Made by a program: the position numbers and the translations under genes. Source: Nitrospirota bacterium (GTDB taxonomy: Bacteria > Nitrospirota > 9FT-COMBO-42-15 > HDB-SIOI813). From it: DNA of 64,000 bases. The notes beneath the pieces were generated by a model. It was not told where the DNA came from, did no database searches, and saw only the letters and a list, made by a program, of their open reading frames with translations. The stretch spans positions 14,092-78,091 of the forward strand of contig JADZCV010000048.1 in NCBI GenBank assembly GCA_020851375.1, written 5' to 3'. Every line of letters begins with the position of its first letter. Position 1 is the first letter of the stretch. Shown here one piece after another: positions 6,859 to 62,142 of this stretch.

Positions 6859-6987
6859 GATGAAAATCCCCCTTAGTCCCCCTTTTCCAAAGGGGGAAAG
6901 TAATTCTTCTCTGTGTAAAAGGGGGAAATTAGTTCCCCCCTTTAGTAAAGGGGGGATAGGGGGGATTTGAACGGAGATTTTCGAGTG
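6859..6987 (+). repeat. Family-A structured repeat (copy A1): G5/C5 multi-hairpin element ending in SD plus GTG
   Basis: aaaatccccc ttagt ccccc ttttccaaa ggggg ... cccccc tttagtaaa gggggg atag gggggatttgaacGGAGAttttcgaGTG. The outer arms are aaatccccc and gggggattt. Similar copies occur at six other loci. Confidence 0.8.
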
Positions 6988-8370
6988 AAGACAGAAATTA
7001 CCATAGATATTAACACCCTCCTTAAATATGACAAGGCCGGCCCGCGTTATACGAGTTATCCCACAGCCCCTGTCTGGAATGAGAAGTTCGGTCCTGAGCA
7101 GTTCAGGGAGAAGATTATTGAAACTAACAGGGCAGATAGCAGTGCACCTTTGTCATTATATTTTCACATCCCATTCTGCTATTCACTCTGTTTTTATTGT
7201 GGCTGCAACTCAATTATCACAAGGAAGAAGGGGCATGCAGGTGAGTATATCTCATATCTGAAAAAGGAGATGGAAAACATATCCCGCCTTGTCAAAAGAA
7301 ACAGGCAAGTGGTCCAGTTGCACTGGGGCGGGGGCAGCCCTGACTTTCTCAGTCCATCTGAGATGGAAGAATTGTACGGATATATAAAAGATAATTTTAC
7401 GATCGCTGTTGGTGCAGAGGCAGGGGTTGAACTTGATCCGCGTGAGACGACATTTGAGCACGTGCAGACCTTGAAAAGACTTGGGTTCAACCGCATCAGT
7501 ATGGGCATCCAGGACCTAAATCCACGGGTCCAGGAGGCTGTAAACAGGGTCCAGAGCGAAGAGACATCAGGAAGACTTGTCAACTGGTGCAGGGATCTTG
7601 GATTTGAGAGTATAAATGTAGACCTGATTTATGGGCTTCCATTTCAGACCGCAGATTCATTTAAGGAGACGGTTGACCGTATCATCGCCATCAATCCTGA
7701 AAGGATAGCAGTGTTCAATTATGCGCATGTACCCTGGATGAAGAAGCATCAGAAGATGATACATGAGGAAGACCTTCCAAAAGGGAGGGAAAAGCTTGAG
7801 ATACTCAAGATGGTCATTGAGAAATTCACAGGCGCAGGATATGTCTATATTGGTATGGACCATTTTGCAAAGCCGGATGATGAACTCTGCATCGCACAAA
7901 GAGAGAAGACCCTGTACAGGAATTTTCAGGGCTACACAACAAAGGCCGGCTGCGACCTCTATGGATTTGGCATGACCTCCATAAGCATGGTCGGCAACTG
8001 CTATGCCCAGAACCTGAAGGCGCTTAATGATTATTACGCTGCTGTAAGTGCCGGCAGGCTGGCAACTCACAGGGGCTATGAGCTGACAGATGATGATATC
8101 CTGAGGAGACATATTATTACGAGGCTGATGTGTGACTTCGAACTTGTCAAACATGAGGTTGAGTCAAAATACAACATATCCTTTGATGACTATTTCAGCG
8201 ATGCCTTAAAGAGGCTCGTGGCATTTCAGGATGACGGCTTGTTAAAACTTCAGCCTGACAGGATAGAGATCTCAGACTCAGGCCGCATACTTGTCAGGAA
8301 TATCGCAATGGTATTCGATGCTTATCTGAACGCCCCTGGCAGAGAGATGAAATTTTCGCGAACAATATGA
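6985..8370 (+). CDS. hemN: Oxygen-independent coproporphyrinogen III oxidase (radical SAM)
   Basis: Contains the radical-SAM Cys motif HIPFCYSLCFYCGC and the N-terminal KYDKAGPRYTSYPTAP characteristic of HemN. The ORF track starts at a TTG at 6967 inside the repeat. A GTG at 6985 with GGAGA 7 nt upstream is the more plausible start. Confidence 0.88.
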   Translation: MKTEITIDINTLLKYDKAGPRYTSYPTAPVWNEKFGPEQFREKIIETNRADSSAPLSLYFHIPFCYSLCFYCGCNSIITRKKGHAGEYISYLKKEMENISRLVKRNRQVVQLHWGGGSPDFLSPSEMEELYGYIKDNFTIAVGAEAGVELDPRETTFEHVQTLKRLGFNRISMGIQDLNPRVQEAVNRVQSEETSGRLVNWCRDLGFESINVDLIYGLPFQTADSFKETVDRIIAINPERIAVFNYAHVPWMKKHQKMIHEEDLPKGREKLEILKMVIEKFTGAGYVYIGMDHFAKPDDELCIAQREKTLYRNFQGYTTKAGCDLYGFGMTSISMVGNCYAQNLKALNDYYAAVSAGRLATHRGYELTDDDILRRHIITRLMCDFELVKHEVESKYNISFDDYFSDALKRLVAFQDDGLLKLQPDRIEISDSGRILVRNIAMVFDAYLNAPGREMKFSRTI

Positions 8371-9397: not shown

Positions 9398-9468
9398 AGA
9401 TGAAAATCCCCCTTAGTCCCCCTTTACCAAAGGGGGAAAGGGGGGATTTGAACGGAGAATTTCAGGTG
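9398..9468 (+). repeat. Family-A repeat (short copy A2)
   Basis: gatgaaaatcccccttagtccccctttaccaaagggggaaaggggggatttgaacggagaatttcaggtg, directly fused to a family-B module. Confidence 0.8.
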
Positions 9469-9655
9469 AACCGTCATGAGCCCTTCGACTGTTCGGCACG
9501 CTCACAGCTCGGGGCTCACCAGGGTTCATGAAAACGTCATTCCCGCGCAAGCGGGAATCCAGACCGCGGCCTGGTTCTGGATTCCCACTCCCAGCTTAAG
9601 TCATGCGGGGACAGGTTCCGTGGGAATGACGGGTATTTAGGAGTATTTTCGAATG
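9456..9655 (+). repeat. Family-B structured repeat (copy B1, one unit) ending in AGGAG plus the ATG start of hemY
   Basis: ...cgtcattcccgcgcaagcgggaatccagaccgcggcctggttctggattcccactcc...gggaatgacgggtatttAGGAGtattttcgaATG. It is the reverse complement of the 25.2-kb array unit. Confidence 0.8.
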
Positions 9656-25160: not shown

Positions 25161-25161
25161 C

Positions 25162-26705: not shown

Positions 26706-28569
<1,864 letters not shown>

Positions 28570-28574
28570 ATTCA

Positions 28575-28696
28575 CACAAAAATCTCCAATCAAATCCCCC
28601 ATCCCCCCTTTAGTAAAGGGGGGAACTAATATCCCCCTTTTATATAGAAAGGAATTATTCTCCCCCTTTGAAAAAGGGGGACTAAGGGGGATTTAA
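28575..28696 (-). repeat. Family-A repeat (A3) between the hemC stop and the hemD start
   Basis: The reverse complement reads aaatccccc ttagt ccccc tttttcaaa ggggg ... cccccc tttactaaa gggggg at gggggatttgattGGAGAtttttgtgtgaat(ATG). Confidence 0.8.
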
Positions 28697-29622
28697 TTCC
28701 GAATTCCGTATACTTCCTGCAGAATTTCCTGCCCCCCCTGCGCCAACAGGCTTTCTGCAAGGGCTATCCCTGCATCCTCAGGATTATCAGCCGTCCCTGA
28801 CCTCTTTTCCCTTACCATCCTGCGTCCATCAACAGACGCAACAAACCCTTCGATTGCAATACCATCACCCTTCATTGTTGCGTAAGCGCCTATGGGAACC
28901 TGGCATCCGCCTTCGAGCCTTTTCAAAAAGGCCCTCTCTGCCCGAACACAGATGTTTGTCTCCATGTGATCAAGCGGTCTGATTATATCAAGTGTATCGC
29001 CGTCAGATTCTCTGCACTCTATACAAAGCGCTCCCTGTCCAATAGCAGGTACGCTGGTTGTTTCCGGCAGGTATTCTGTAATCCTGTCTGCCCATCCAAG
29101 CCTTCGGATGCCTGCTGCGGCAAGAATAATGGCATCAAACTCACCAGCCTCGAGTTTTTTTATCCTCGTGTCAAGATTCCCCCTGAGCGGATGGATAACA
29201 ATATCAGGTCTCTGGTTAAGCAGCTGGGAAATCCTCCTGAGGCTGCTCGTACCTATACGTGCGCCGTGCCTGAGGTGTAAAAATCCACTCCCGTCCCTGG
29301 ACAGCAGGGCATCCCTCGGATCTTCACGCTCCGGGATGGCGCCTATGCAAAGTCCTTCAGGGAGGATGGCAGGGACATCCTTCATACTATGAACGGCTAT
29401 ATCAATGTCATTCCGTAAAAGGGCGTCTTCGATCTCTTTCACAAAAAGCCCCTTGCCTCCTACCTTTGCAAGCGGGACATCGAGTATCTTATCACCTGTG
29501 GTCTTTATCTTCTGTATAGTAACAGTGATGCCTGCATAACGGGCCTCAAGCTCTGACTTTATATGCTCTGCCTGCCATATGGCAAGTTTGCTTCCCCTGC
29601 TGCCGATCCTGATTTCTTTCAC
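28693..29622 (-). CDS. hemC: Hydroxymethylbilane synthase (porphobilinogen deaminase)
   Basis: 309-aa ORF with a GTG start, beginning MKEIRIGSRGSKLAIWQAEHIK, the typical HemC N-terminus. Confidence 0.9.
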   Translation of the reverse strand: MKEIRIGSRGSKLAIWQAEHIKSELEARYAGITVTIQKIKTTGDKILDVPLAKVGGKGLFVKEIEDALLRNDIDIAVHSMKDVPAILPEGLCIGAIPEREDPRDALLSRDGSGFLHLRHGARIGTSSLRRISQLLNQRPDIVIHPLRGNLDTRIKKLEAGEFDAIILAAAGIRRLGWADRITEYLPETTSVPAIGQGALCIECRESDGDTLDIIRPLDHMETNICVRAERAFLKRLEGGCQVPIGAYATMKGDGIAIEGFVASVDGRRMVREKRSGTADNPEDAGIALAESLLAQGGQEILQEVYGIRN

Positions 29623-29624
29623 TC

Positions 29625-29830
29625 GAAAATACTCCTAAGTATCCGTTATTCCCACAGAACCTGTCCCCGCAGGATTTTTCACCCGTCATTCCCACGCAAG
29701 TGGGAATCCAGAACCAGGCCACAGTCTGGATTCCCGCTTACGCGGGAATGACGTTTTTCATGACCCCTTGCGAGCCCAGAGCTGTGAGCTTGTCGAACAG
29801 TCGAAGGGCTCATGACGGTTCACCTGCGGA
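29625..29830 (-). repeat. Family-B repeat (B5, one unit) supplying AGGAG plus the GTG start of hemC
   Basis: ctttcactcgaaaatactcctaagtatccgttattcccacagaacctg...gtcattcccacgcaagtgggaatccagaaccaggccacagtctggattcccgcttacgcgggaatgacg... Confidence 0.85.
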
Positions 29831-29839
29831 CGCCCATCA

Positions 29840-31138
29840 TCATTCTCCCTTTTCATTCTCCTCAGCTGCCTTGACCTCAAGGTTAAATATCTTCCTTATC
29901 GTCTCCACATATAGTAAGCCATTGCTCGAGTTCGACTCTGATTTAAGGGCTACAAGAGGGCCGTGCAGTATCTTGCTCACTATCGTATTCGTCAGCCCTT
30001 CTACCACTGCTATCTCTTCAGGAGACAGCGTCCTCAGTTTTTCCGTCATCCGATCCAGCTCCTTTTTCCGTATATCCTCAACCTTATCCCTGAGGGCAAC
30101 AATTGTGGGCACAACCTCGAGCGATTTAAACCATTTCGAAAATGTCCCTACCTCTTCCACAATGATCTGCTCCCCCTTATCCGCCTCCTCCTGTCTCGTC
30201 CTGCGGTTTGCCTCAACAACCGCCTGCAGGTCATCTATATCATACAAAAATACATTATCAATCTTATTAATTGCAGGGTCAATATTTCTCGGAACTGAAA
30301 TATCTATGAGAAAAATTGGCGTGTTTCTTCTCTTATGAATAATATCCTGCATATGTTCAGCCCTTATAATATAATCAGGGGCACCTGTGGAACATATTAC
30401 AACATCAGACCTCCCCATTTCCTCTAAAAAATTTTCAAATCTTACTGCACGGCCATTATAGGCCTGCGCAAGGTTTAACGCCCTGTCATAATTTCTCGTG
30501 GAAACAACTATCTCTTTGATGCCGCTGCTGACAAGGTAATTAGCTGCAAGCTCACCCATCTCACCTGCGCCAACAAGCAGCCCCCTTTTATCCCTCAAAC
30601 TGCTGAAGATCTTTTTTGCAAGCTCTACTGCAGCAAAACTTATAGATACGGCATTTTCAGCAATCCTGGTCTCTGTCCTCACACGTTTGGCAACTGATAT
30701 GGCTTTTTTAAAGAGCTTATTTAAGATCGCACCGGTCGTCTTGTTTAACAGGGCCGTGTCAAAGGCATCCTTTACCTGTCCAAGTATCTGAGGTTCGCCC
30801 ACCACCATCGAATCAAGGCTTGAGGCAACCCTGAAAAGATGTTTTACGGCCGCCTCATTTTTATGAATATAGAGGTGTTGTGTCAGGGACTCAATCGGCA
30901 GGTGAGTCTGGTATGAGTGCAAAAAATCTTTGACCCTTGCGATACCGACCTCAGATTTGTCAACAATGGCATATATCTCCACACGGTTGCATGTGGACAG
31001 GATAAGGCATTCACTGACATTCTCATAACCTTTGAGCCGTACAATTCCATCTGACAGCATCTGGCCTGAAAATGACAGCTTCTCCCTCACTTCAACCGGC
31101 GCTGTATTATAACTGAGTCCTGTTAATATGATGTCCAT
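29840..31138 (-). CDS. hemA: Glutamyl-tRNA reductase
   Basis: 432-aa ORF. The N-terminus MDIILTGLSYNTAPVEVREKLSF and the catalytic Cys in ILSTCNRVEIY are HemA hallmarks. Confidence 0.9.
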   Translation of the reverse strand: MDIILTGLSYNTAPVEVREKLSFSGQMLSDGIVRLKGYENVSECLILSTCNRVEIYAIVDKSEVGIARVKDFLHSYQTHLPIESLTQHLYIHKNEAAVKHLFRVASSLDSMVVGEPQILGQVKDAFDTALLNKTTGAILNKLFKKAISVAKRVRTETRIAENAVSISFAAVELAKKIFSSLRDKRGLLVGAGEMGELAANYLVSSGIKEIVVSTRNYDRALNLAQAYNGRAVRFENFLEEMGRSDVVICSTGAPDYIIRAEHMQDIIHKRRNTPIFLIDISVPRNIDPAINKIDNVFLYDIDDLQAVVEANRRTRQEEADKGEQIIVEEVGTFSKWFKSLEVVPTIVALRDKVEDIRKKELDRMTEKLRTLSPEEIAVVEGLTNTIVSKILHGPLVALKSESNSSNGLLYVETIRKIFNLEVKAAEENEKGE

Positions 31139-31156
31139 AACCTTTAGTGCACACCT

Positions 31157-32029
31157 TTACATGAAGGCGTGCTTTCCATGCAGGAGCATATTGACTCCCA
31201 CAAAGGTAAAGATCACGCCGGCAAACCCTATAATTGCCAGCCAGGCTGCCTTCCTGCCACGCCATCCCACTGTTATCCTTCCATGAAGCATCGCAGCATA
31301 GAAAAGCCATACTATCAAAGACCACGTCTGTTTAGGGTCCCAGTTCCAGTAGGTACCCCAGGCAAACTCGGCCCAGATTGAGCCTGTAATTATGCCAAGG
31401 GTCAGGAGAGGAAAACCAAAGGATATGGCGCGATAATTGAGATTGTCCAGCATGTCAAGGGCCGGTAGTTTAAAATAGAGCTTGTTAAACCTCTTGGATT
31501 TCAGAAACCACTCCTGCAGCAGATACATTATACCTGCAAGAAATGCCATAGAAAAGGCCGCTGACCCCATTATGGCGAGGATGGTATGAACACCAAGCCA
31601 TGCACTCTGCAACTGGGGATCAAGCATCTTTATCTCCATGGGAAGCGTGGCAGAAGATATAAGGGAAATAAAGGTGACAGGCAACACGAATGAACCCAAA
31701 ATATAGATCCTGTACTTATACTCTATGAGGAGAAAGGCAAGGACAAGCGCCCATGAGAAAAAGGACATGGCCTCATGGAGGCTTGTTATGGGTATATACG
31801 ATGCCTCAGCAGTACGCACTATAAGTGCGGCCGTATGAATCAGAAAACCAAGGCCCGTCAGTCCAAAGGACAACCTCGGCGGTCTTTCCTTCCTGCTGAC
31901 AAGAAAGTAGAGAAACGAAGCCATTCCAAGGAAATAGGCCCCAAGGGCAGCCTTAAAAAAAAAGATGTTCACCATGTTTGGATAGTTTAACTTTATTGAA
32001 GAATGCGTGTCAAGAAAAGTACTTGACAA
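31157..32029 (-). CDS. Cytochrome c assembly protein CcsA/HemX-like membrane protein
   Basis: 290-aa polytopic membrane protein with the Trp-rich motif WAEFAWGTYWNWDPKQTWSLIVWLFYAAMLHGR. It is located upstream of hemA, like hemX. Confidence 0.72.
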   Translation of the reverse strand: MSSTFLDTHSSIKLNYPNMVNIFFFKAALGAYFLGMASFLYFLVSRKERPPRLSFGLTGLGFLIHTAALIVRTAEASYIPITSLHEAMSFFSWALVLAFLLIEYKYRIYILGSFVLPVTFISLISSATLPMEIKMLDPQLQSAWLGVHTILAIMGSAAFSMAFLAGIMYLLQEWFLKSKRFNKLYFKLPALDMLDNLNYRAISFGFPLLTLGIITGSIWAEFAWGTYWNWDPKQTWSLIVWLFYAAMLHGRITVGWRGRKAAWLAIIGFAGVIFTFVGVNMLLHGKHAFM

Positions 32030-32142
32030 ACCATTAATTTGGGAATATTATCCCAAATCTGAACCATTATTGATAACTATCCCCAAAACGGAGGTGCCTT
32101 ATGAGAAACTAACTAACTTGTTTACAGAAGGAGGCAACAGTA

Positions 32143-33936
32143 ATGAAGAAGAATATTTACCACAAATTAATCCGTTTCTTGTTTTTGGTCACTATATTGG
32201 CCCCCCTCAGGGTCTACGGGTATAATCCGGTAGAATCGAGCATCCAGTTACGAGAACGGGGAATACAAAGTTATCTGAGTGAATCTGCCTTTCTGTCCAC
32301 CATCAGGAATAATGATGCATCTTCAGTTAAGCTATTTCTGGACGCCGGCATAAATCCCGATGCCAGATACCAGGATAATACAACTGCATTAATACTCGCT
32401 GCAGGAAATGGAAACGAAGTTATTGTTAAAGCCCTTCTCGACCGGGGTGCCGACGCAGGGGCGGTGAATAAGGATGGCCTGACCCCCCTGGTAACAGCCT
32501 CCATACATGGGCATACGGCTATTGTAAAGTCCTTGCTGGAACGAACTTCAAACGAGGACGAAAAGATTGCAGCACTGATGGTTGCAACTATGAAGGGGCA
32601 TACCGGCATCGTTCAGGCCCTTCTGTCCGGCGGGGCTGATGTCAATGCCAGTGACAGGTATGGCTGGACCCCCCTCATGTATGCAGCAAGGATGGGGCAC
32701 ACAAGGATTGCAAAGATTTTACTGGCTAACGGAGCTTTGGCAAACAACAGTGACAGCTCTGGACAGACCGCCCTTTTACTTGCAGTCAAAGAGGGTCACT
32801 ACGATATTGTAAAAATCCTTATTGATAAGGGCGCGGATCCGAATATCAAAGACTCCGAAGGAAAAACAGCCCTGGTATATGCAACAGAGAGAGGATATAA
32901 TGACATCGTAAGGGTTTTGCTTGATAATGGCGCCAGCCCGGTTAGGGGTAAGTTTGGCATGTCATTGCTGGAAACTGCCGCAATCAATAATCAAAGTAAC
33001 ATTGTGGAAACCCTTCTGGACAGAGGGGTAGATAGTGATGTCAGCAATGATGTACTTATGCTTGCAGCGGGCCTCGGTCACAGCGAAGTTGTTCAGTCCC
33101 TTTTGTCAAGAGACGCAAATGCCAATACCATGACTGAATCCGGAACAACGGCGCTGATGATTGCATCAGAGCAGGGACATCCGGATGTCGTCAGGATATT
33201 GTTGAACAAGGGTGCCAGGATTGATGATGTCACTGCTCAGGGCGAAACAGCCCTGATGATCGCTGTAAGGCAGGGGCATACTAATGTGGTGCAATACCTG
33301 CTCGAGAAGGGTGCAAGAATAAATGTTTCTGCACATGAAGGCGATACTCCGCTAATTGCAGCGATCAGATACGGATACCCGGAAATTGTCCAGATTTTAC
33401 TGGATGAGGGCGACAAAATTGATGCTGGTACAAGCGAAGGCGATACTCCGCTCATGATTGCTGCAAGGTACGGCAGAAATGAAATTGTACAAATCCTCCT
33501 GTCCAGAGGTGCAAATGTGAATGCCTCAACAAAGGCCGGCATGACCCCGCTTATTGCTGCGGCAATGAAGGGCGAGGTCAAAATTGCAAAATCCCTGCTG
33601 GATAAGGGAGCGGATGTAAATGCAGCTACTAAAGAAGGAATTACCCCTTTGATATTTGCTGCAGGCTTCGGCAGCAAAGACATGGTGAGCACGCTGCTGG
33701 CCAGGAACGCTCATGTAAATGCAAAAACCTCGGAAGGTTTAACAGCCCTGATAGTAGCCTCGGAGCAGGGTTACTCAGACGTCGTGCTAATCCTTTTGGC
33801 AAATGGCGCTGATACAACTATAAGAACAATAGATGGCCAGACAGCCCTGACGATGGCGGAAAAAAAACACCACTCCGGCATCACCAGGTTGTTTACCCTT
33901 AACTATCCCTTAGTAAAGAATCGTGCAGGATTGTAA
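32143..33936 (+). CDS. Secreted ankyrin-repeat protein (about 17 ANK repeats)
   Basis: 597-aa ORF with a signal peptide MKKNIYHKLIRFLFLVTILAPLRVYG, followed by 33-aa units G-TPL--A---GH--IV--LL--GADVNA repeated throughout. Confidence 0.82.
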   Translation: MKKNIYHKLIRFLFLVTILAPLRVYGYNPVESSIQLRERGIQSYLSESAFLSTIRNNDASSVKLFLDAGINPDARYQDNTTALILAAGNGNEVIVKALLDRGADAGAVNKDGLTPLVTASIHGHTAIVKSLLERTSNEDEKIAALMVATMKGHTGIVQALLSGGADVNASDRYGWTPLMYAARMGHTRIAKILLANGALANNSDSSGQTALLLAVKEGHYDIVKILIDKGADPNIKDSEGKTALVYATERGYNDIVRVLLDNGASPVRGKFGMSLLETAAINNQSNIVETLLDRGVDSDVSNDVLMLAAGLGHSEVVQSLLSRDANANTMTESGTTALMIASEQGHPDVVRILLNKGARIDDVTAQGETALMIAVRQGHTNVVQYLLEKGARINVSAHEGDTPLIAAIRYGYPEIVQILLDEGDKIDAGTSEGDTPLMIAARYGRNEIVQILLSRGANVNASTKAGMTPLIAAAMKGEVKIAKSLLDKGADVNAATKEGITPLIFAAGFGSKDMVSTLLARNAHVNAKTSEGLTALIVASEQGYSDVVLILLANGADTTIRTIDGQTALTMAEKKHHSGITRLFTLNYPLVKNRAGL

Positions 33937-35116
33937 AGAAACAAGGAAAATTGCCGCAAATGTTGCGCGGCTATCGAATCTGCTGACACGGGACCGGGCA
34001 GACCTCCCTCACTCATATCTAAAGGACAATGAGCTGCGGGAGGCATATATCGCTTATTATCTACCTGCGAATATGTATAAGGTGCACCTCCCCCTAAGGG
34101 AACTATCCCGTCATCCGGCAGGGGTTCTCAGGAAAGACAGGCTTCGTATCCTTGATCTTGGCTCCGGTCCTGGAACAGCAATCCTTGGCATCATGGACTT
34201 CTTTTCCGGATCTTCCGATAAACCTTTCCTTGAGTTTACCGCAGTTGACCCTGTTGAAGAAAACCTGATGGAAGCGTTGCGGCTCTTCCGGTCTTTCAAA
34301 GAAGATGCCAGCGCAGATGCCTCGCTAATAACTGCCAAATCAGTAATCGAGAGAACTAAATCTCTTCCGCAAGGACCGTTTGATATTATTATTATGTCTA
34401 ATGTCCTGAGCGAGGCGGGTCATCCGGCAGCCGGACTTGAAAAAATCCCCCTTACTCCCCCTTTTTCAAAGGGGGAAATAAGACCCTCCCCTTTAGAAAA
34501 GGGGGGAAGGGGGGATTTGAATCCGGATTACCGGTTGAACCTGGTGAAGTCCGTGATAAGCGGGCGCCTTGCCACTGACGGAAGCCTTATCATTATAGAA
34601 CCGGCCCTCCGTGAGACATCACGGGAACTGCTTGAGGTCAGAGACGGCTTGTTGAAAGGCGGGCTTCATATCTACTCACCGTGTCTCATGAATAATCCGT
34701 GCCCGGCCCTCACCAATCCCAAAGACTGGTGTCATGAAGATATACCGTGGGATCCACCGGCGGCTATCCGGGAAATAGACAAATTGACCGGCTTGAGAAA
34801 AGACTCCCTGAAGTTTTCCTATCTGGTTATCAGAAGGGACGCCCTCTCCATCAGAGACATCGTCAGAGACAACACCTTCAGGGTAGTCAGCGAACCGCTC
34901 GTTTCAAAAGGAAAGATCGAGTTTTACCTGTGCAATGCAGGCGGCAGACGGCTTGCAGTAAGACTGGACAGGGATAAAAGCAATTTGAATGAACAATTTT
35001 CAACTCTTAAGCGGGGCAATATCATTTCATTCGAGGGTCTGGTTGATGAAGGGAAGAGGCTTCGGCTCGTAAAGGAGACTCTCACCCATCCCTTTTCCGT
35101 GAGGGCAGAGGAATGA
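33923..35116 (+). CDS. Rsm22-like SAM-dependent methyltransferase carrying an in-frame family-A repeat insertion
   Basis: The N-terminal region LLTRDRADLPHSYLKDNELREAYIAYYLPANMYKV...ILDLGSGPGTAI resembles the Rsm22/COG5459 MTase. A 27-aa segment KIPLTPPFSKGEIRPSPLEKGGRGDLN is encoded by the repeat. Confidence 0.55.
   Translation: MQDCKETRKIAANVARLSNLLTRDRADLPHSYLKDNELREAYIAYYLPANMYKVHLPLRELSRHPAGVLRKDRLRILDLGSGPGTAILGIMDFFSGSSDKPFLEFTAVDPVEENLMEALRLFRSFKEDASADASLITAKSVIERTKSLPQGPFDIIIMSNVLSEAGHPAAGLEKIPLTPPFSKGEIRPSPLEKGGRGDLNPDYRLNLVKSVISGRLATDGSLIIIEPALRETSRELLEVRDGLLKGGLHIYSPCLMNNPCPALTNPKDWCHEDIPWDPPAAIREIDKLTGLRKDSLKFSYLVIRRDALSIRDIVRDNTFRVVSEPLVSKGKIEFYLCNAGGRRLAVRLDRDKSNLNEQFSTLKRGNIISFEGLVDEGKRLRLVKETLTHPFSVRAEE
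34441..34522 (+). repeat. Family-A repeat (A4), intragenic and in-frame
   Basis: aaaaatccccc ttact ccccc tttttcaaa ggggg aaataagaccctcccctttagaaaa gggggg aa gggggatttgaa, inside the 33923..35116 ORF. The reading frame is maintained across it. Confidence 0.8.
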
Positions 35117-35144
35117 GTGAGAGAACATTTCATGGCATGAGAAA

Positions 35145-35435
35145 CTACTTCTTTTCTTCCTTCTTTTCTTCTTTCTTCTCTTCTGCCTTGATGGATTTGG
35201 CATGTCCCTTGTCAGCATCCACCTCGACCATAGCTCCAACCTTTACATCGCCGGCCTTTTTTGTGGTAGCATCAAAATGGACCTTGTGCTCCTTGCCTTT
35301 GGCGTCTTTTATGAAGTAGAATGAGCCCTTATCATCAATCTTTTCCAGCTTACCCTTAACCTCTGCTGCAAAACCAAGGCTGACAAAGGAGAGGACTGCA
35401 ACTGCCATAACCATACCTTGTAATATGCGTTTCAT
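35145..35435 (-). CDS. Small secreted protein with a C-terminal (EEKK)n low-complexity tail
   Basis: 96-aa ORF with a signal peptide MKRILQGMVMAVAVLSFVSLGFAA and the tail KAEEKKEEKKEEKK. Confidence 0.45.
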   Translation of the reverse strand: MKRILQGMVMAVAVLSFVSLGFAAEVKGKLEKIDDKGSFYFIKDAKGKEHKVHFDATTKKAGDVKVGAMVEVDADKGHAKSIKAEEKKEEKKEEKK

Positions 35436-35560
35436 ATATGAATCACCCCCTTTCTGTTTTTTTGTACTCGTTGAAGCCGGATGCCTGAGCCCCGGCCTTT
35501 ACAATCTGACAACTTTATACTAAAAAGATTAAATGGATATTAATAATAAATTAATTTTTT

Positions 35561-36964
35561 CTAATCCCAAACCGGAAGGGATACGGTAAACGTACTCCCC
35601 TTGCCAACAGTACTTTCTACGGATATGGCACCGTGGTGAGCTTCAACGATCCATTTGCAGAGGCTTAATCCAAGTCCATGTCCCTGGTTTGAGCGGGATT
35701 TATCCGCCTGGTAAAACCGTTCGAATATATGCGGAATATCCTCTTCCGGAATGCCACAACCGGTATCCGCCACAGAGACCAATACCCCGCCATCTTTTCT
35801 GCAGAGCGAGAGTACGACATCTCCTCCTTCCGGAGTATATATAACGGCATTCTGGACGAGGTTGAGCAATAGTTCTCCAAGGAGGAGTTCGTCTCCCCTG
35901 ATCAGGAGAGCGCCCTGTGTATCCAATGTCATATGAATTTTTTTCTCCAGGGCAGGAGTCCGGAATTGTTTATAAACGTATCCCAGCAGTTCCGCCAAAT
36001 CAAGCTCAACCGTATTGAGCGTAATCTCCCCCCGGTCGGCCCTGGAAAGGAATAAAAGCCTTTCCACGATCTTTTCCATACGGAGGATCTCTTCGAGATT
36101 GCTTTCGAGGGTCTTTTGGTACTCCTCACTGCTTCGCAATCTCTTCAGGCCCAGCTCCGTCTGTCCCCGTAGAATGGAAAGCGGAATCCTGAGCTCATGA
36201 GAGACATTATCGCTGAACTCCGCGATCTGCCGGAAAGATTTCTCAAGCCTTGTAATCATATCGTTAAACGCAGCCGTCAGGTCTCTTATCTCCTGGCTGG
36301 TCCCCTCTGACACCTCTATTCTGTGCTGCAGGTCGCCTGAACTTATACGATGAGATGCCCTGATCACAGCATCCAGTGGTTTCAGGGCCCGCTTTGTAAG
36401 GAACCACCCCCCTCCGCCAATGAGCACTGTAGTAGCCGGAATAAATAAGAGATTCAGGAACAATAAATTTTCCAGGGTGGTTTGAATATCATGGATGGAG
36501 CTCCCGACCTGAATAATATAGACCAGCCTGTTCCCATGGAACACAGGCTTGGTCAATATGCGCATAGAGGTGAGGCCATCCATTACAGAGAGCGTAGTCA
36601 GACTTTTTTCATTGTGGAATATCTTCCCCCACATCTCTTCTGTTACCGGAAATCTCTCCTCCTCAGATACAGATGAGCTGAAGATGATCTCTCTGGAGGG
36701 ATCATATACCTCCACAATAATCCCCTTTAATTCAATATCCGGATACTCCCGTACCATCCTTGCAACAGCTGTCTTGACATCATCTTTTGTAGGAACCTTC
36801 CCCGGTATTGAGGAATCAAGGATATCGGCAACTACCTTCAGTGAGTAGTCTTTCTGACTCTCCAGTATACTTTTATATCCGGTGTAACGAATTCCGGCCA
36901 GGAAGCTCAGGACTACAATGACTAAGATACTAAACCATATGGCCAGCCTGGTCCGTATGGCCAT
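35561..36964 (-). CDS. Sensor histidine kinase (TM-sensor-HAMP-HisKA-HATPase), partner of the OmpR-family regulator
   Basis: Start MAIRTRLAIWFSILV with a GGGAGGG SD. H-box: VSHELRIPL. HATPase: DTGCGIPEEDIPHIFERFYQAD, GHGLGLSLCKWIVEAHHGAI. Confidence 0.85.
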   Translation of the reverse strand: MAIRTRLAIWFSILVIVVLSFLAGIRYTGYKSILESQKDYSLKVVADILDSSIPGKVPTKDDVKTAVARMVREYPDIELKGIIVEVYDPSREIIFSSSVSEEERFPVTEEMWGKIFHNEKSLTTLSVMDGLTSMRILTKPVFHGNRLVYIIQVGSSIHDIQTTLENLLFLNLLFIPATTVLIGGGGWFLTKRALKPLDAVIRASHRISSGDLQHRIEVSEGTSQEIRDLTAAFNDMITRLEKSFRQIAEFSDNVSHELRIPLSILRGQTELGLKRLRSSEEYQKTLESNLEEILRMEKIVERLLFLSRADRGEITLNTVELDLAELLGYVYKQFRTPALEKKIHMTLDTQGALLIRGDELLLGELLLNLVQNAVIYTPEGGDVVLSLCRKDGGVLVSVADTGCGIPEEDIPHIFERFYQADKSRSNQGHGLGLSLCKWIVEAHHGAISVESTVGKGSTFTVSLPVWD

Positions 36965-37637
36965 TATTTCCCTCCCGCAACATATAACCGACACCACGGA
37001 TGGTCTGAATCAGCTTATGCGGCTCTCCCTTGTCAATCTTATTACGCAGGTAGGTAATGTACACATCAATGACATTCGTCTCTGTATCAAAATCAATGTT
37101 CCAGACATGTTCGGATATCATGCTGCGGGTGAGTACCCTGTTTGGATTTCGCATGAAGTACTCGAGCAGTGCATACTCCTTGTTGGTCAGATCTATCCTT
37201 CTGCTTCCGCGGTAAACCTCCCGCATCACTGGATTTAACTTCAGGTCATCGATCCTCATGGCTCCAGCCTGTTCCGGTGACCGCCGGCGAAGGAGCGCCC
37301 TAATCCTGGCTAAAAATTCTTCAACGGAGAAGGGTTTGGTCAGATAGTCATCACCCCCCAAATCAAGGGCCATGACCTTATCTTTGACGGCATCCCTTGC
37401 CGTAAGCACAAGGATCGGTGTTTTACACCCCGTTTTCCTGAGCTTCCTGATGATATTCAGCCCGTCCATTTTGGGGAGCATCAGGTCCAGTATAATCAGG
37501 TCATAGTCATGGGTCTCAGCGAACAACAGTCCGTCCTCGCCATTAAATGCCTGGTCCGCTGCATGCTGTTCTTCTTCAATGGCCTGGCACAGAAAATTGG
37601 AAACCTTTTTTTCATCCTCAATAATTAATATTCTCAT
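36930..37637 (-). CDS. OmpR/PhoB-family response regulator
   Basis: 235-aa ORF beginning MRILIIEDEKKV, with DLMLPKMDG and a winged-helix C-terminus ...YITYLRNKID...IQTIRGVGYML. Confidence 0.9.
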   Translation of the reverse strand: MRILIIEDEKKVSNFLCQAIEEEQHAADQAFNGEDGLLFAETHDYDLIILDLMLPKMDGLNIIRKLRKTGCKTPILVLTARDAVKDKVMALDLGGDDYLTKPFSVEEFLARIRALLRRRSPEQAGAMRIDDLKLNPVMREVYRGSRRIDLTNKEYALLEYFMRNPNRVLTRSMISEHVWNIDFDTETNVIDVYITYLRNKIDKGEPHKLIQTIRGVGYMLREGNNGHTDQAGHMV

Positions 37638-37745
37638 AATCAGAAGTTACCGTAGCAGGATGAGGCTATGCTGTCAAGCGGACGGTTTCGCGCAACAAAA
37701 AATAAATCTGTCCCCTTTTCCTGAATTTTACTACAATACGTTTAT

Positions 37746-38519
37746 ATGGAACCACTCCTGGAGGCAAAAGACGTATCAAAATACTTTGGTGGTCTTAAGG
37801 CATTGGACGGGGCAGTGCTTGATATATTCCCCGGCGAGATCATAAGCCTTATCGGACCTAATGGTGCAGGCAAAACAACGTTTTTCAATTGTATCACCGG
37901 CCTGGTATCACCGGACAAGGGCGAAATTATATTTAAAGGTAAAAAGATCAATAACCTGAAGCCCCACGAAATTACCAGGCACGGTATTGCAAGGACTTTT
38001 CAAAACCTGCGCCTGTTTGCCGAGATGACAGCCCTTGAGAATGTCATGGTAGGAGGATTCTGCAGGACAAAGGGTAGTTTGGCAGGGGCCATATTCCGTA
38101 CCAGAAACACGATTGAGGAAGAGCGCCGGCTGTCATCAAAGGCAATGAAACTGCTCGAATTCGTAGGCATTGGAGGCCTGATGGAGAGCTGGGCAAGGGA
38201 TCTCTCTTACGGCGACAGGAGGAGGCTTGAGATTGCGAGGGCGCTCGGCAGTGAACCATCACTCCTGCTTCTTGACGAGCCTGCGGCAGGACTGAACCCG
38301 AGTGAGTCAGGAAAACTCATGGATATCATCAGACAGATACGCGACAGGGGAATTACCATACTCCTTATCGAGCACGATATGACGGTAGTTATGGGTATCT
38401 CCGACCGTGTTGCTGTGCTCGATTACGGAGTAAAGATTGCTGAAGGCCTGCCTGCAGAGATACAAAGGAATCCGGCTGTAATTGAGGCTTATCTTGGAAA
38501 AGAGGAAAACATAAACTAA
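37746..38519 (+). CDS. livG: Branched-chain amino acid ABC transporter ATP-binding protein (LivG-type)
   Basis: Walker A GPNGAGKTT, signature LSYGDRRRLEIARAL, Walker B LLLLDEPAAGL. Confidence 0.82.
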   Translation: MEPLLEAKDVSKYFGGLKALDGAVLDIFPGEIISLIGPNGAGKTTFFNCITGLVSPDKGEIIFKGKKINNLKPHEITRHGIARTFQNLRLFAEMTALENVMVGGFCRTKGSLAGAIFRTRNTIEEERRLSSKAMKLLEFVGIGGLMESWARDLSYGDRRRLEIARALGSEPSLLLLDEPAAGLNPSESGKLMDIIRQIRDRGITILLIEHDMTVVMGISDRVAVLDYGVKIAEGLPAEIQRNPAVIEAYLGKEENIN

Positions 38520-39232
38520 TGCTCCGCCTTGAAAACGTGCACGCCTCATATGAAGCCATAGAGGTACTAAAGGGCATCTCTCTGGAAGTAAAGAAAGGGG
38601 AGATAGTTACTATTATAGGCGCCAACGGCGCAGGCAAGACCACCACACTAATGTCCATTTCAGGAATAAACAGGGTTCTTAAAGGAAATATCACCTTCAA
38701 TAACCAGGATATTTCAAACCTCCCGCCGCATAAGATCGTAGGGCTCGGTATCTCCCAGGTCCCAGAAGGGAGGAGGATACTGCCTCGCTTTACAGTACGC
38801 GAGAATCTGGAGATGGGGGGTTTTTTGTGCCGGGAAAAAAAGGAGTTGAAAGAGAGGATTGACATGATTTACAGTCACTTCCCGATTCTATCGGAACGGA
38901 GAAGTCAGTATGGCGGGACGCTGAGCGGCGGTGAGCAGCAGATGCTTGCAATCGGCCGGGCGCTTATGTCAAAACCTGTTCTCCTGCTTCTTGACGAGCC
39001 TTCGCTGGGATTAGCGCCAATGGTTGTATCCAGGATCTTTGATATAATCCGTAAAATCAACAGGGAGGGAGTAACCATCCTGCTTGTAGAGCAAAATGCA
39101 AGAGCAGCCCTCATGCTCGCCAACAGGGGATACGTGATGGAAACAGGAGCAGTTATCCTTTCCGATGACGCAAAGTCTCTGATATCAGACAAAAAGGTGC
39201 GCGAGGCATATTTGGGAGAGTCCGGGGCTTAA
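38519..39232 (+). CDS. livF: Branched-chain amino acid ABC transporter ATP-binding protein (LivF-type)
   Basis: Walker A GANGAGKTT, signature LSGGEQQMLAIGRAL, Walker B LLLLDEPSLGL. Confidence 0.82.
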   Translation: MLRLENVHASYEAIEVLKGISLEVKKGEIVTIIGANGAGKTTTLMSISGINRVLKGNITFNNQDISNLPPHKIVGLGISQVPEGRRILPRFTVRENLEMGGFLCREKKELKERIDMIYSHFPILSERRSQYGGTLSGGEQQMLAIGRALMSKPVLLLLDEPSLGLAPMVVSRIFDIIRKINREGVTILLVEQNARAALMLANRGYVMETGAVILSDDAKSLISDKKVREAYLGESGA

Positions 39233-39245
39233 GGATTTTTTTCTC

Positions 39246-39274
39246 TTGACGATAATAATTTATTATGTTAGATT
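39246..39274 (+). promoter_or_regulatory. Putative sigma70-type promoter for cspA
   Basis: TTGACG at 39246-39251, a 17-nt spacer, then TAGATT at 39269-39274. It lies about 130 nt upstream of the csp ATG, consistent with the long csp 5' UTR. Confidence 0.4.
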
Positions 39275-39336
39275 GTTAACGTTTTTATGCATCAGATTTT
39301 GCAGTCTTGATGAAATAGTAGATCGGCCATCGGTAA

Positions 39337-39372
39337 CCGCAGGGGTTTGTAGTGGCCTCTGCGGTTTTTTTT
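39337..39372 (+). terminator. Hairpin plus T8 within the csp leader, downstream of livF (attenuator or terminator)
   Basis: ccgcagggg-tttgtagtgg-cctctgcgg followed by tttttttt. Confidence 0.5.
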
Positions 39373-39400
39373 ATTTCTGTAGAAAAGGAGGTCAGAAGCA

Positions 39401-39601: not shown

Positions 39602-39614
39602 ATCCGTAGAATCA

Positions 39615-44246: not shown

Positions 44247-44343
44247 TTCACTCGAAAATCTCCGTTCAATTCCCCCTATCCCCCTTTACTAAAGGGGGGG
44301 AACGAATTTCCCCCTTTGGAAAAGGGGGACTAAGGGGGATTTC
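44247..44343 (-). repeat. Family-A repeat (A5) between gyrB and gyrA
   Basis: The reverse complement reads aaatccccc ttagt ccccc ttttccaaa ggggg aaattcgtt ccccccc tttagtaaa ggggg atag ggggaattgaacGGAGAttttcgaGTGaac. Confidence 0.8.
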
Positions 44344-44368
44344 TCATCTGCCTTTGTGAGCCCCCATT

Positions 44369-55828: not shown

Positions 55829-55829
55829 T

Positions 55830-56172
55830 CGAAAATACTCCTAAGTACCCGTTATTCCCACGGAACCTGCCCCCGCAGGATTTTTCACCCGTCATTCCCA
55901 CGCAAGTGGGAATCCAGAACCAGGCCCTGGTTCTGGATTCCCGCTTTCGCGGGAATGACGTTTTTACGATACCTTGTGAGCGCAATCTCATGACGGTTCA
56001 CCTGCAAATGCTCCTAAGTACCCGTTATTCCCACAGAACCTGCCCCCGCAGGATTTTTCACCCGTCATTCCCACGCAAGTGGGAATCCAGAACCAGGCCC
56101 CGGTCTGGATTCCCGCTTTCGCGGGAATGACGTTTTTACGATACCTTGTGAGCGCAGTCTCATGACGGTTCA
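55830..56172 (-). repeat. Family-B repeat (B6, about 1.7 tandem units) supplying the SD and start for gmhA
   Basis: cttcactcgaaaatactcctaagtacccgttattcccacggaacctg...gtcattcccacgcaagtgggaatccagaaccaggccc(tg/cg)gt(tc/c)tggattcccgctttcgcgggaatgacg... appears twice. Confidence 0.85.
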
Positions 56173-56268
56173 TCTGAAAATCCCCGTTCAAATCCCCCCT
56201 ATCCCCCCTTTAGTAAGGGGAGAACTAATTTCCCCCTTTGAAAAAGGGGGACTAAGGGGGATTTTCAT
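56172..56268 (-). repeat. Family-A repeat (A6) fused to the B6 array, after the hpf stop
   Basis: tccccgttcaaatcccccctatcccccctttagtaaggggagaactaatttccccctttgaaaaagggggactaagggggatttt. Confidence 0.8.
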
Positions 56269-56275
56269 GGTGATT

Positions 56276-59858: not shown

Positions 59859-59988
59859 AGATGAAAAATCCCCCTTAGTCCCCCTTTACAAAGGGGGAAA
59901 GTATTCCCTCTCTGCATAAAAGGGGAACATCCGTTCCCCCCTTTAGTAAAGGGGGGAGAGGGGGGATTTGAACGGAGAATTTCAAGTG
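59859..59988 (+). repeat. Family-A repeat (A7) ending in GGAGA plus the GTG start of the export gene
   Basis: gatgaaaaatccccc ttagt ccccc tttacaaa ggggg aaagtattccctctctgcataaaa gggg aacatccgtt cccccc tttagtaaa gggggg agag gggggatttgaacGGAGAatttcaaGTG. It is nearly identical in architecture to A1. Confidence 0.85.
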
Positions 59989-62142
59989 AAAAAATCAGTT
60001 CCTGCCTTGCTTTCCACAGCAATGGCCGTCCTGCTTACGGCGATGTGTTCGGGTGTATCTGTTTCCCGGGCAGCAAACCAGTTTAACATCCCTGGTACTT
60101 CAGGGATGCCGGGGTTGTCACTGCCCTCAGGCATACCTTCAGCGCCGGAACAACACCAGATGGTTCAGGGGCTTCAGCCGCAGAGGCCGGACGGTCGGGA
60201 TCTTTCTCCGCCAGTCAGGCACAAAAACATACCCTCTCCATTCGAAGACTACATACAGGGGAAAATCCCTGACCTTGTATCAACAAGCGTCGAGCAGTTC
60301 GGATACAACCTTTTTGAAGAGCCGCCGAGCACATTTGCGCCGGTGGATACTGTGCCTGTATCGCCCGATTACCTCGTTGGCCCAGGGGATGAGATAAGGA
60401 TAAACATCTGGGGCAAACTAAATGCCGACCTTACAGCTGAAATTGACAACGACGGCAAAATAAACGTTCCCCAGCTTGGCATAATATACCTGACAGGCCT
60501 GACATTTGCCGAGGCAAAAGAGACAATAGAAAAGACATTCGGCCGGTACTACAGGCCGGAAGAGGTCAAGATAAATGTCAGTCTTGGACGCCTCCGGACC
60601 ATAACCGTATTCATTGTGGGCAAGGCACAAACCCCCGGAAGCTACTCACTATCCTCTCTGTCAACCCTTGTCAACGCACTCTTTGCCGCAGGCGGGCCTG
60701 CCAAGAATGGCACTATGCGGGACATACAGGTGAAGCGTAACGGAGTGACAGTCACAAATTTTGATTTTTATGACTTCCTCCTTAAGGGAGACAAGACAAA
60801 GGACATAAGGCTATTGCCAGAGGATGTTATATTTATACCACCTGCCGGGCCGCAGACCGCTGTTACTGGTTATGTCAATACGCCGGCTATATATGAGCTA
60901 AAGGGTGAAAAGACAGTAAAAGAGGTGATAGAACTTGCCGGCGGATTAAACGACATTGCGTTTCAGGGGAGGCTTCAGATCGAGCGTATCATGGATAACA
61001 GATATGGCACTGTTTATGATGCAAACATAGAAGACATAAAGACGGCAGATGTCAGCGTGCAGGGTGGAGACCTTATAAAGGTCTTTCCTGTTGTCCAGGA
61101 TAAAAAGGTTGTAAGGCTTGTAGGGGCAGTTCAGAGAGAGGGTCAGTATGGCGTTGGTCAGGGGCTTACTGTAAAGGACCTGATCGCCATGGCAGGGGGC
61201 CTTAGGTATTTTGCCTTTACAGATGAGGCTGAGATAACCAGGGTAGTCGTTACTCAGAAAGGACCTGAGACTACGAAGCTGCCTATCAATCTTAGAAAGG
61301 CCATGGATGGCGACCCCAGGCATAACCTCCCGCTGCAGGAAAATGACTACCTGATTGTAAAGAGCGTCCCGGAATGGGAATTATACAGGACTGTAACCAT
61401 TGAAGGTGAGGTAAGATTTCCAGGGATGTATACTATCAGGAAGGGGGAGACACTGTCATCACTCCTGAAGCGCGCGGGTGGTTATACGGACAAGGCGTAT
61501 CTCAAGGGTACAATATTTAACCGGGAATCTGTCAGGGAACTGCAGCAGAGACAGAATGAGGAGTCAGTAGACAGGTTAGAGCGGCAGATGATGATCCAGT
61601 CAGCAGGAACAATTGAAGCTGCTCTAACTCCTGAAGACGCAAGCCAGCAGAAACTGGTTTTTGAGCAGAGAATGGCGCTCCTGGAAAAGTTAAGATCAGC
61701 CCAGGCAAGGGGGAGGCTCAGTATCAGGTTAGACCCAATTGACCGATTTGAGGGTTCTCCCTATGATATTGCGCTGGAAAATAAAGATAGGATCGTGATT
61801 CCTGAAAAGCCCCAGCAGGTCCAGGTGATAGGCTCTGTCTATAATCAGACCGCCTTTGTATATGACCCTCAGGGTACAGTATCAACCTATATATCAAAGG
61901 CCGGCGGTATGACTCGGGATGCAGACAAGAAGGAGATGTATGTCTTAAAGGTGGATGGCTCTGCTGTGAGTAAAAGGGCCTCAGGGGGGGTGTTTGGCAG
62001 CTGGGGAGAGCTCGACCCTGGTGACACTATCGTTGTTCCGGAAAAGATCGAAAAGATAGCGTGGCTGAAGGAGGTCAAGGACATAACACAGATACTCTAT
62101 CAGATAGCCGTTACTGCCGGTGTCTTGATAGTTGCCTTTTAA
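59986..62142 (+). CDS. Polysaccharide export protein (Wza/GfcE-like; Poly_export plus SLBB domains)
   Basis: Signal peptide VKKSVPALLSTAMAVLLTAMC. Poly_export motif: YLVGPGDEIRINIWG. There are several SLBB-like repeats. The track's TTG start at 59968 lies inside the repeat, and GTG at 59986 is preferred. Confidence 0.8.
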   Translation: MKKSVPALLSTAMAVLLTAMCSGVSVSRAANQFNIPGTSGMPGLSLPSGIPSAPEQHQMVQGLQPQRPDGRDLSPPVRHKNIPSPFEDYIQGKIPDLVSTSVEQFGYNLFEEPPSTFAPVDTVPVSPDYLVGPGDEIRINIWGKLNADLTAEIDNDGKINVPQLGIIYLTGLTFAEAKETIEKTFGRYYRPEEVKINVSLGRLRTITVFIVGKAQTPGSYSLSSLSTLVNALFAAGGPAKNGTMRDIQVKRNGVTVTNFDFYDFLLKGDKTKDIRLLPEDVIFIPPAGPQTAVTGYVNTPAIYELKGEKTVKEVIELAGGLNDIAFQGRLQIERIMDNRYGTVYDANIEDIKTADVSVQGGDLIKVFPVVQDKKVVRLVGAVQREGQYGVGQGLTVKDLIAMAGGLRYFAFTDEAEITRVVVTQKGPETTKLPINLRKAMDGDPRHNLPLQENDYLIVKSVPEWELYRTVTIEGEVRFPGMYTIRKGETLSSLLKRAGGYTDKAYLKGTIFNRESVRELQQRQNEESVDRLERQMMIQSAGTIEAALTPEDASQQKLVFEQRMALLEKLRSAQARGRLSIRLDPIDRFEGSPYDIALENKDRIVIPEKPQQVQVIGSVYNQTAFVYDPQGTVSTYISKAGGMTRDADKKEMYVLKVDGSAVSKRASGGVFGSWGELDPGDTIVVPEKIEKIAWLKEVKDITQILYQIAVTAGVLIVAF

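Follow-up and report, generated by a model that had tools for sequence, protein, structure and literature searches.

The DNA stretch analyzed here, 64,000 nucleotides (nt) from a Nitrospirota bacterium (contig JADZCV010000048.1; referred to as the window), contains a complete copy of a dispersed palindromic repeat, family A, that lies in frame within a gene for a 397-aa methyltransferase of the Rsm22/METTL17 type. The most probable explanation, to which we assign a probability of about 85%, is an in-frame insertion of a non-autonomous hairpin repeat resembling dimers of repetitive extragenic palindromic (REP) sequences (REPIN-like), which is read through by translation. The element would consist of two inverted hairpin units and a short tail and would be translated in one of three open frames. 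About 28 residues, 27 from the core and the remainder from junction and tail, would have been added to a surface loop between strand beta4 and helix alphaD, and the protein would tolerate this extension. Intact stems and unchanged synonymous sites, as described below, are the pattern to be expected of a palindromic repeat under structure constraint or arm-templated correction.

The 81-mer AAAAATCCCCC...GGGGGGATTTGAA (34441-34521) occurred once in the window, while shuffled sequences led to an expectation of zero. Codons K174-N200 (34442-34522) of the open reading frame (ORF) read KIPLTPPFSKGEIRPSPLEKGGRGDLN. An earlier reading of the sequence alone had already described a complete family-A repeat in frame in this Rsm22-like ORF, and our analysis confirmed this, including the exact 27-aa peptide. 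Of the six reading frames of the core, two forward frames and one reverse frame were open throughout. The left and right halves of the core pair over 62 of the 81 positions in the predicted fold, a long hairpin of -56.8 kcal/mol (z = -4.6), and none of 200 shuffled sequences was equally stable. The window protein was identical to record P0001 from a Nitrospirae metagenome-assembled genome (NCBI). Besides this record, the same in-frame element was present in L027 and L028 (Logan assemblies, different runs) and in L029 (ENA assembly).

The host gene is real and under purifying selection. Pfam Rsm22 (PF09243) matched residues 199-341 (E 3e-15, 56.7 bits with a cut-off of 23) and Methyltransf_12/23 matched residues 70-175, with the profile matches interrupted at the insert. 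The search returned 2146 homologs at E <= 1e-5, several of which are named "small ribosomal subunit Rsm22 family protein" in the source records. An AlphaFold2 model based on 40 aligned homologs reached a predicted template modeling score (pTM) of 0.84, and its best fold matches in the PDB were yeast Rsm22 in 8d8k and 8d8j, two mitoribosomal small-subunit assembly intermediates. In the alignment of 40 sequences the columns D78, G80, G82, P83, and G84 of motif I (LDLGSGPG) were invariant, and the model showed an alternating strand/helix topology. The ratio of nonsynonymous to synonymous substitution rates (omega) was 0.33 in comparison to a 96.5%-identical ortholog and 0.20 in comparison to a 77%-identical ortholog. 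In relatives the gene order was hemA, a cytochrome c assembly gene (ccsA), Rsm22, and then two ATP-binding cassette (ABC) ATPases; since this synteny was conserved, the compared genes are regarded as orthologs.

The distance from motif IV (SNVLSE) to strand beta5 (IIIEP) was exactly 30 residues in 104 of 117 classifiable homologs and 58 residues in the window protein. A longer segment was seen in 12 proteins, all of them among the 22 closest matches. The net gain over insert-free homologs was, therefore, 28 aa and not 27. The sequence-only reading had proposed an alignment to orthologs as a check and had expected a lineage-specific protein variant; the gap indeed fell at exactly the position of the insert in the insert-free orthologs and in the 104 homologs, and the lineage-specific variant was borne out. 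Insert-free relatives read ...HxDPERI-EKRVxLL... across this position. At the DNA level, CCTGAA was followed by AGGATTGAGAAACGGGTAGCA in the empty allele (L030), while C(C/T)TGAA was followed by AAAATCCCCC in the A alleles. The core comes after TGAA, and the left junction is two codons longer than in the empty allele. Judging from its sequence, this junction could possibly be a remnant of an older element or of a head hairpin (TCCGG-CAG-CCGGA).

In the model the insert is located between strand beta4 (residues 153-159) and helix alphaD (201-215), which is followed by strand beta5 (216-227). The predicted local distance difference test (pLDDT) score fell below 50 in two places only, residues 168-198 and the C-terminal residues 393-397. 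The insert was modeled as a low-confidence loop; the earlier reading had expected a surface loop or linker. It does not link two domains as had been suggested, but is, according to the model, a loop within the Rossmann-type methyltransferase fold (beta4-alphaD).

The element-derived stretch of the window copy probably runs on through linker and tail to position 34540 (P201-N206), and these 18 nt (34523-34540) encode the start of helix 201-215 in the model. The tail of the window copy matched the family consensus at 10 of 18 positions and the tail of the family-C allele of L032 (Table 1) at 16 of 18 (counted by hand on the alignment). In L029 the corresponding stretch, GACTTTCGAGTGAAC, contains the exact family-tail 12-mer TTTCGAGTGAAC at the 7-nt offset from the core that is also seen in intergenic copies. 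Intergenic family-C units end with ...GGGATGACAGGGAGGCAGTATTTTCGGATAATG, in register with ...GGGATGACAGGGAGGCTGGATTATCGGTTGAAC of the intragenic unit. Because of the exact 12-mer at the same offset in L029 and the register of the C units, we conclude from the sequence comparison that the tail after the insert comes from the element and that helix alphaD now begins with it instead of the host residues EKRVA; in the window copy, this origin of the tail is inferred. The residues following the insert were D/N-(Y/F)-R-x-N in all insert-bearing orthologs, compared to the EKRV type in the empty ones.

We analyzed the age of the insertion by comparing the window to orthologs. The same core was found in P0002 (protein identity 94%) and in P0003-P0005 (75%). 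Between the window and L029, 75 of 81 core nucleotides were identical (92.6%) versus 77.2% in the rest of the gene (binomial P = 2e-4), and at third codon positions the numbers were 25 of 27 for the core versus 206 of 340 for the rest (binomial P = 2e-4). The increased identity was limited to the core, with values of 0.72-0.78 in the flanks. The core showed no synonymous and six nonsynonymous differences, while the rest of the gene had 0.81 synonymous substitutions per synonymous site (dS) with an omega of 0.20. Of these six differences, five were located in the 19 positions that are unpaired and one in the 62 that pair (Fisher P = 0.002). In L027 two substitutions within the stems keep the pairing; a third, at the stem-edge position 34487, does not. 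The intragenic copy of the window was 93% identical to the intragenic copy of L029, but not more than 85% identical to any copy in its own genome. Both intragenic copies share a junction of six A and the loop variants AGA and AA, which were not present in the intergenic copies of the window. The closer similarity to the L029 copy argues against a recent insertion and also against ongoing homogenization by the window copies. The sequence-only reading had considered a recent insertion. This was not supported, since orthologs with only 77% identity (dS 0.81) carry the same core. Sequence comparison thus indicates that the DNA or RNA palindrome is conserved, while the encoded peptide is not. The palindrome may be kept by a structure-level constraint or by templated correction between the arms; the data fit both.

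Seven copies of family A were found in the window, and only the copy in the Rsm22 gene was intragenic. The motif AAATCCCCCYTANTCCCCCTTT had 10 matches in the window compared to none in 100 shuffled sequences. In an alignment of 15 copies from the window and related genomes the unit was modular: between its left and right hairpins a middle one can be present or absent, and after them come a linker of 7 nt and a tail of 12 nt (TTTCGAGTGAA and one further base). The terminal inverted repeats of the family are AAATCCCCC...GGGGGATTT; head and tail outside of these are not mutual inverted copies. Family-A units start with AAATCCCCC and have no GTAG or CGTC tag, while families B (CGTCATTCCCGCG) and C ((C/T)GTCAYCCYGAAC) carry the tag. 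The 16 family-B hairpins of the window were all located outside of genes. L027 and L028 (97% identical) were collinear with window positions 29794-40117, with no gain or loss of an element. The positions of the features are listed in Table 1.

Table 1. Element, host gene, further family-A copies of the window, and alleles of the orthologs. Positions without a locus name refer to the window.
Feature	Positions	Strand	Basis or remark
397-aa Rsm22/METTL17-type class I SAM methyltransferase, GTG start	33923..35116	+	Pfam, homologs, fold match, omega, synteny
Left junction, CAT CCG GCA GCC GGA CTT GAA, read as H-P-A-A-G-L-E	34421..34441	+	compared with empty allele L030 and with C-type and A-type alleles
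Family-A core, complete two-hairpin (REP-dimer-like) unit	34441..34522	+	aligns end to end with intergenic two-hairpin copies at 44260 and 56180
Left half of palindrome, AAATCCCCC-TTACT-CCCCCTTTTTC-AAAGGGGGAAA	34443..34478	+	fold; motif match at 34443-34464
Right half of palindrome, TCCCCTTTAGAAAAGGGGGGAAGGGGGGATTT	34487..34518	+	fold; inverted-repeat pair I14 with 44268-44342
7-nt linker and degenerate 12-nt family tail, CCGGAT TACCGGTTGAAC, read as P-D-Y-R-L-N	34523..34540	+	register with intergenic tail CGGAGAT-TTTCGAGTGAA
Three-hairpin family-A copy, intergenic	6859..6989	+	tail gives GGAG and GTG start of HemN-like gene
Short family-A copy, intergenic	9399..9470	+	followed by family-B unit
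Family-A copy, intergenic	28571..28698	-	upstream of HemD-like gene
Two-hairpin family-A copy, intergenic	44247..44348	-	nearest relative of the intragenic copy in the window, 85% over 75 nt
Two-hairpin family-A copy, intergenic	56169..56269	-	adjoins family-B array
Family-A copy, intergenic	59860..59990	+	tail gives GGAG and GTG start of 718-aa secreted protein
Compared alleles of A type, C type, and empty	L029:3038-4216 (A), L032:9273-10451 (C), L030:10001-11089 (empty)		divergent segment at codons ~58-217
Insert of L032, different double hairpin CGTCACCCTGAAC...GTTCGGGATGAC			named family C here
Insert of L035 and of L034/L001			partial or degenerate family C
Insert of L033, GTCATTCCCG...CGGGAATGAC			family-B unit
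Insert of L036, 6-aa remnant			with tail-like AATTTTCGGATCAAC
L030			empty allele

The orthologs differed strongly in what they carry at the position of the insert. Families A and C were found as dispersed intergenic repeats in ortholog genomes. A scan of GTDB genomes revealed one close relative (L001); the genome of the window was not among the representatives. L029 (A), L032 (C), and L030 (empty) were 95-99% identical over kilobases of flank, and the ends of their Rsm22 genes (codons 1-57 and 218-392) were 97-100% identical, while codons 58-217 showed only 57-87% identity. P0010 is a mosaic: its ends had 97% and 95% identity to the A-type protein P0003, and its middle part 88-90% to the empty P0013/14 and 69% to P0003. 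Mosaic and divergent middle imply that allelic recombination moves the central segment together with the insert state. In a tree with masked inserts the insert-bearing proteins formed one clade, with C basal, A on two branches, and empty alleles nested. By sequence comparison the beta4-alphaD loop is a recurrent landing or exchange site, which holds A, B, C, or remnants or is empty in orthologs. The central segment (codons ~58-217) resembles a hotspot of recombination or a group of alleles that have been exchanged.

Further in-frame copies were found elsewhere. P0014 (L037:1786-1890, residues 73-107) contains a second in-frame A unit of 105 nt, which was confirmed in the DNA. The unit is short but complete, comprising head hairpin, core, linker, and the consensus tail TTTCAAGTGAAA, and it is placed after the N-terminal helices, just before motif I. 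A peptide matching it was seen at this second site in P0018, at the protein level. In a DNA scan the exact left hairpin of family A was present in more than 120 metagenome contigs. Two of 60 sampled copies with enough flanking sequence (~3%) were read through by a long ORF and 58 were not; short intragenic A and C matches to a loose regular expression in other loci were left out of the counts. The two copies are on unrelated metagenome contigs: one is in frame in a TonB gene, in the linker before the TonB_C domain and in the same KIPLTPPFSKGEI frame (L069:~2080-2115), the other in a gene for a multihaem cytochrome/tetratricopeptide repeat protein (L094:5164-5196). A protein search with two concatenated core peptides retrieved only unannotated ORFs of 33-98 aa; as it did not recover the Rsm22 proteins, it was uninformative on other hosts.

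Several observations weigh against an insertion that is read through. The insert-containing sequences made up only 4 of 40 in the alignment used for the model, which partly explains the low pLDDT of the insert. No target-site duplication could be cleanly defined, because the sequences next to the inserts, TGAA at site 1 and GAAA at site 2, also belong to the ends of the element. At the right junction the tail stands in place of 15 host nt (EKRVA to DYRLN), so that a deletion, replacement, or conversion is also needed. Translation of the insert is deduced from the intact frame and the selection on the gene. A tblastn search with the Y1 transposase of L035 as query revealed no Y1 transposase in the window. 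The Y1 gene of L035 itself (IS200/RAYT-like, PF01797; L035:8360-9055, minus strand) is located 1 kb upstream of the Rsm22 ortholog. The inverted repeat on its flanks, TTATTCCGGGGACAC / GTGTCCCCGGAATGA, is a different one with no relation to family A, B, or C. A parent insertion sequence (IS) with matching ends was not seen in the window or the compared loci, where no systematic search was made. Finally, one old insertion followed by core swaps and recombination fits the data, as do repeated insertions.

Regarding the history of the site, we tentatively consider, at less than even odds, that an old C-type insertion came first, that the A core then replaced it, and that recombination spread the alleles. 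The two additional codons at the left junction and the C-like tail of the window lineage would then be left over from the C-type insertion. The later replacement of the C-type insertion by the A core is an inference, and no transposase was linked to the elements. Also at less than even odds, it is conceivable that A, B, and C entered the loop separately, A even twice, with the site or a resident element attracting them by a TGAA-type motif or the shared tail. The common D(Y/F)RxN would then stem from the separate tails that came in with each insertion; the insert type departs from the gene tree, with A on two branches and empty alleles nested among insert-bearing ones; L029, L032, and L030 are nearly identical in their flanks and gene ends; the tail of L029, other than that of the window, is the exact A consensus over 12 nt; and a second site of the same gene was also struck. 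However, the three intragenic A cores have three features in common that none of 10 intergenic copies shows, namely the six-A junction, the 81-nt two-hairpin form, and the loop variants. The A and C alleles also have the two extra left codons and near-identical diverged right tails in common (16 of 18 for the window and L032), and the mosaic alleles represent recombination of the central segment, which can give incongruence without new insertions. We consider it unlikely that the beta4-alphaD loop is a true cassette-exchange site, at which units sharing head hairpin and tail are swapped by a site-directed mechanism. As candidate routes, an unlinked enzyme of the Y1 type could cleave a single strand beside TGAA, or the shared tail could mediate conversion. 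If this applied, the palindromes would be actively maintained and a single species would have alternative protein loop variants.

A domesticated function of the element, e.g., as a translational pause separating the two halves of the fold, as a site for processing by RNase III or other enzymes, as a protein-binding DNA site, or as a useful loop extension next to the active site, appears quite unlikely. In its favor, the conservation of stems and synonymous sites is far higher than in the rest of the gene, and according to the model the insert comes after motif IV. Motif IV borders the substrate pocket in class I methyltransferases. A palindromic repeat without host function is, however, equally expected to keep its stems. 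Every difference between the window and L029 cores changes an amino acid, so the peptide is not under selection, and otherwise similar orthologs have unrelated families, decayed halves, or empty alleles. In addition, no terminator-like site was found on the plus strand at the element, and Rfam has no family for it, with only sub-threshold microRNA-like hairpin noise at this position. An assembly error, a two-gene boundary, or a pseudogene is very improbable. Repeats often cause misassembly, and the Pfam profiles cover only either side of the insert (Methyltransf_12/23 up to ~175, Rsm22 from 199), but the same in-frame element is present in at least four independent assemblies, omega is well below 1, and the break in the Pfam matches corresponds to the inserted residues themselves. 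Two genes split at the element, an alternative named in the sequence-only reading, were rejected: the homologs are single polypeptides that comprise both sides, and the fold is continuous over the insert. That the segment is native to the gene and gave rise to the repeat family has a negligible probability, as only the sequence identity itself speaks for it, while 104 of 117 homologs are without the segment and the family occurs almost always outside of genes on the metagenome contigs.

In-frame palindromes in genes are already known; new for the in-frame insertion described here are the phylum (Nitrospirota) and the host gene of the Rsm22/METTL17 type. The accounts of Ogata et al. 2000 given in PMC10969869 and PMC3184786 describe the Rickettsia palindromic elements (RPEs) as palindromes of ~100-150 bp in frame in unrelated housekeeping genes, at fold-compatible positions and with functional hosts. 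Like the RPEs, the element of the window is a palindrome in frame in a functional gene, visible as an indel in comparison to orthologs and with the insert in a predicted loop. It differs in the host phylum and in that only ~3% of the sampled copies, and one of seven in the window, are in frame; the resemblance to RPEs is functional only. Intragenic survival of such a repeat had been called rare in the earlier reading. The proportion of ~3% agrees with this, but the phenomenon as such is documented for RPEs and intragenic REPs. In-frame palindromic repeats in functional genes are also documented for BRE, ERIC, BOX, and RUP elements (PMC3184786).

GTAG/CGTC REPs are short G+C-rich hairpins, mostly in inverted (head-to-head) dimers, and a dimer within a gene codes for 20-30 aa (Di Nocera et al. 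2013, PMC3733652). In that study some genes were struck twice, RNA-modifying enzymes were among the hosts, different REPs were found at about the same site in orthologous recB genes of Xanthomonas, and the CGTC type had no known dedicated transposase (PMC3733652). Family B of the window fits the description of CGTC-REP/dRS3-like elements, with CGTC and a ATTCCCGC stem, a short loop, and CCA. Family A shares with the GTAG/CGTC REPs the short G+C-rich hairpin units in inverted dimers, an intragenic insert within this length range, a host gene struck at two sites, and different units at one site in orthologs. It differs from them by the lack of a tag, the extra outer inverted repeat AAATCCCCC/GGGGGATTT, and the shared tail. 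Three families at one site with polymorphism at the species level go beyond the recB example. With the REPIN-RAYT system (Bertels and Rainey 2011, PMC3116915; RAYT, REP-associated tyrosine transposase) family A shares the two inverted units with a spacer that can fold into one hairpin, the many dispersed copies, and the fact that copies persist for long at orthologous positions. Extragenic location is part of the description of REPINs (PMC3116915), and family A is also predominantly extragenic like REPs, with six of seven copies in the window and 58 of 60 metagenome copies outside of long ORFs. Unlike in this system, no RAYT flanked by these hairpins was found in the window and at the L035 locus. 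As there is neither a GTAG/CGTC tag nor a linked RAYT, we refer to family A as REP-dimer-like and do not file it as REPIN. It resembles classical miniature inverted-repeat transposable elements (Correia, ERIC, BOX/RUP, BRE; PMC3184786) in its small size, terminal inverted repeats, stable RNA hairpins, and occasional in-frame fusion to an ORF. It is distinguished from them by the missing clear target-site duplication and cognate IS (no systematic IS search), by its modular structure (head hairpin, one to three core hairpins, tail), and by a tail that serves as ribosome-binding site and start codon for the downstream gene.

The gene represents a well-controlled natural example of a conserved enzyme that has taken up a mobile palindromic repeat and was not destroyed by it. 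The encoded peptide drifts, whereas the stems and synonymous sites remain frozen. With empty, occupied, swapped, and decayed alleles in syntenic orthologs it becomes possible to ask what keeps palindromes intact. Such repeats can generate protein length variants within species. Beyond the known examples, the site adds multi-family polymorphism at the species level, conservation at the level of the palindrome, and a tail doubling as translation start. For annotation, repeat-derived peptides such as PPLEKGGRGDL are to be expected in real proteins, and many spurious small ORFs arise from intergenic copies.

Families A and B share the tail GGAG-n-ATTTTCGAGTGAA, and the last unit of each array provides a Shine-Dalgarno-like GGAG and the GTG or ATG start of the downstream gene. 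Such sites were found at 6985(+), 9653(+), 18556(+), 29622(-), 55828(-), and 59986(+), with a HemN-like gene, an FAD oxidase-like gene, a 542-aa ORF, a HemC-like gene, a 191-aa ORF, and the gene for the 718-aa secreted protein, respectively. As the tail supplies the starts, the first two codons of these unrelated genes lie in repeated sequence. Family-B units have ~200 nt, are often in tandem, and contain inverted pairs of CGTC-tagged hairpins (CGTCATTCCCGCGnAAGCGGGAATCCAG) followed by the same tail as in family A. They are located at 25157-25772, 55825-56210, 18194-18562, 9450-9660, 29619-29831, and 22175-22247. Genes for haem biosynthesis (HemN-, HemC-, and HemD-like and a protoporphyrinogen-oxidase-like FAD protein) have A or B arrays directly upstream (window positions 6985-9653 and 28560-29622 and neighbors). 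Relatives hold different families at those intergenic positions, e.g., family C upstream of hemC in L029.

Residues C254, C260, C270, and C337 of the Rsm22-type protein were invariant across 40 bacterial homologs. Eukaryotic METTL17/Rsm22 proteins bind an Fe-S cluster (PMC11046306, PMC12375894), and by analogy the bacterial proteins may do so as well. Two other length variants were observed in the alignment (A1, columns 320-370 and 400-422): P0021 has an internal duplication of the beta5-alphaE region, and in P0091 (Nitrospinae) the YSPCL motif is preceded by an insert of 23 aa, YPHTQKAPNHYKNPSPSRVGVGV. The gene upstream of Rsm22 (32143-33936, plus strand) encodes a protein of 597 aa with ankyrin repeats, whose N-terminus is hydrophobic and resembles a signal peptide; the two genes overlap by 14 nt at the start of Rsm22. 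The ankyrin-repeat gene was also present in L027 and absent at that position in L029, L030, L032, L033, L035, and L036. The only Rfam match above threshold in the whole window was a tRNA gene at 12472-12545 on the plus strand.

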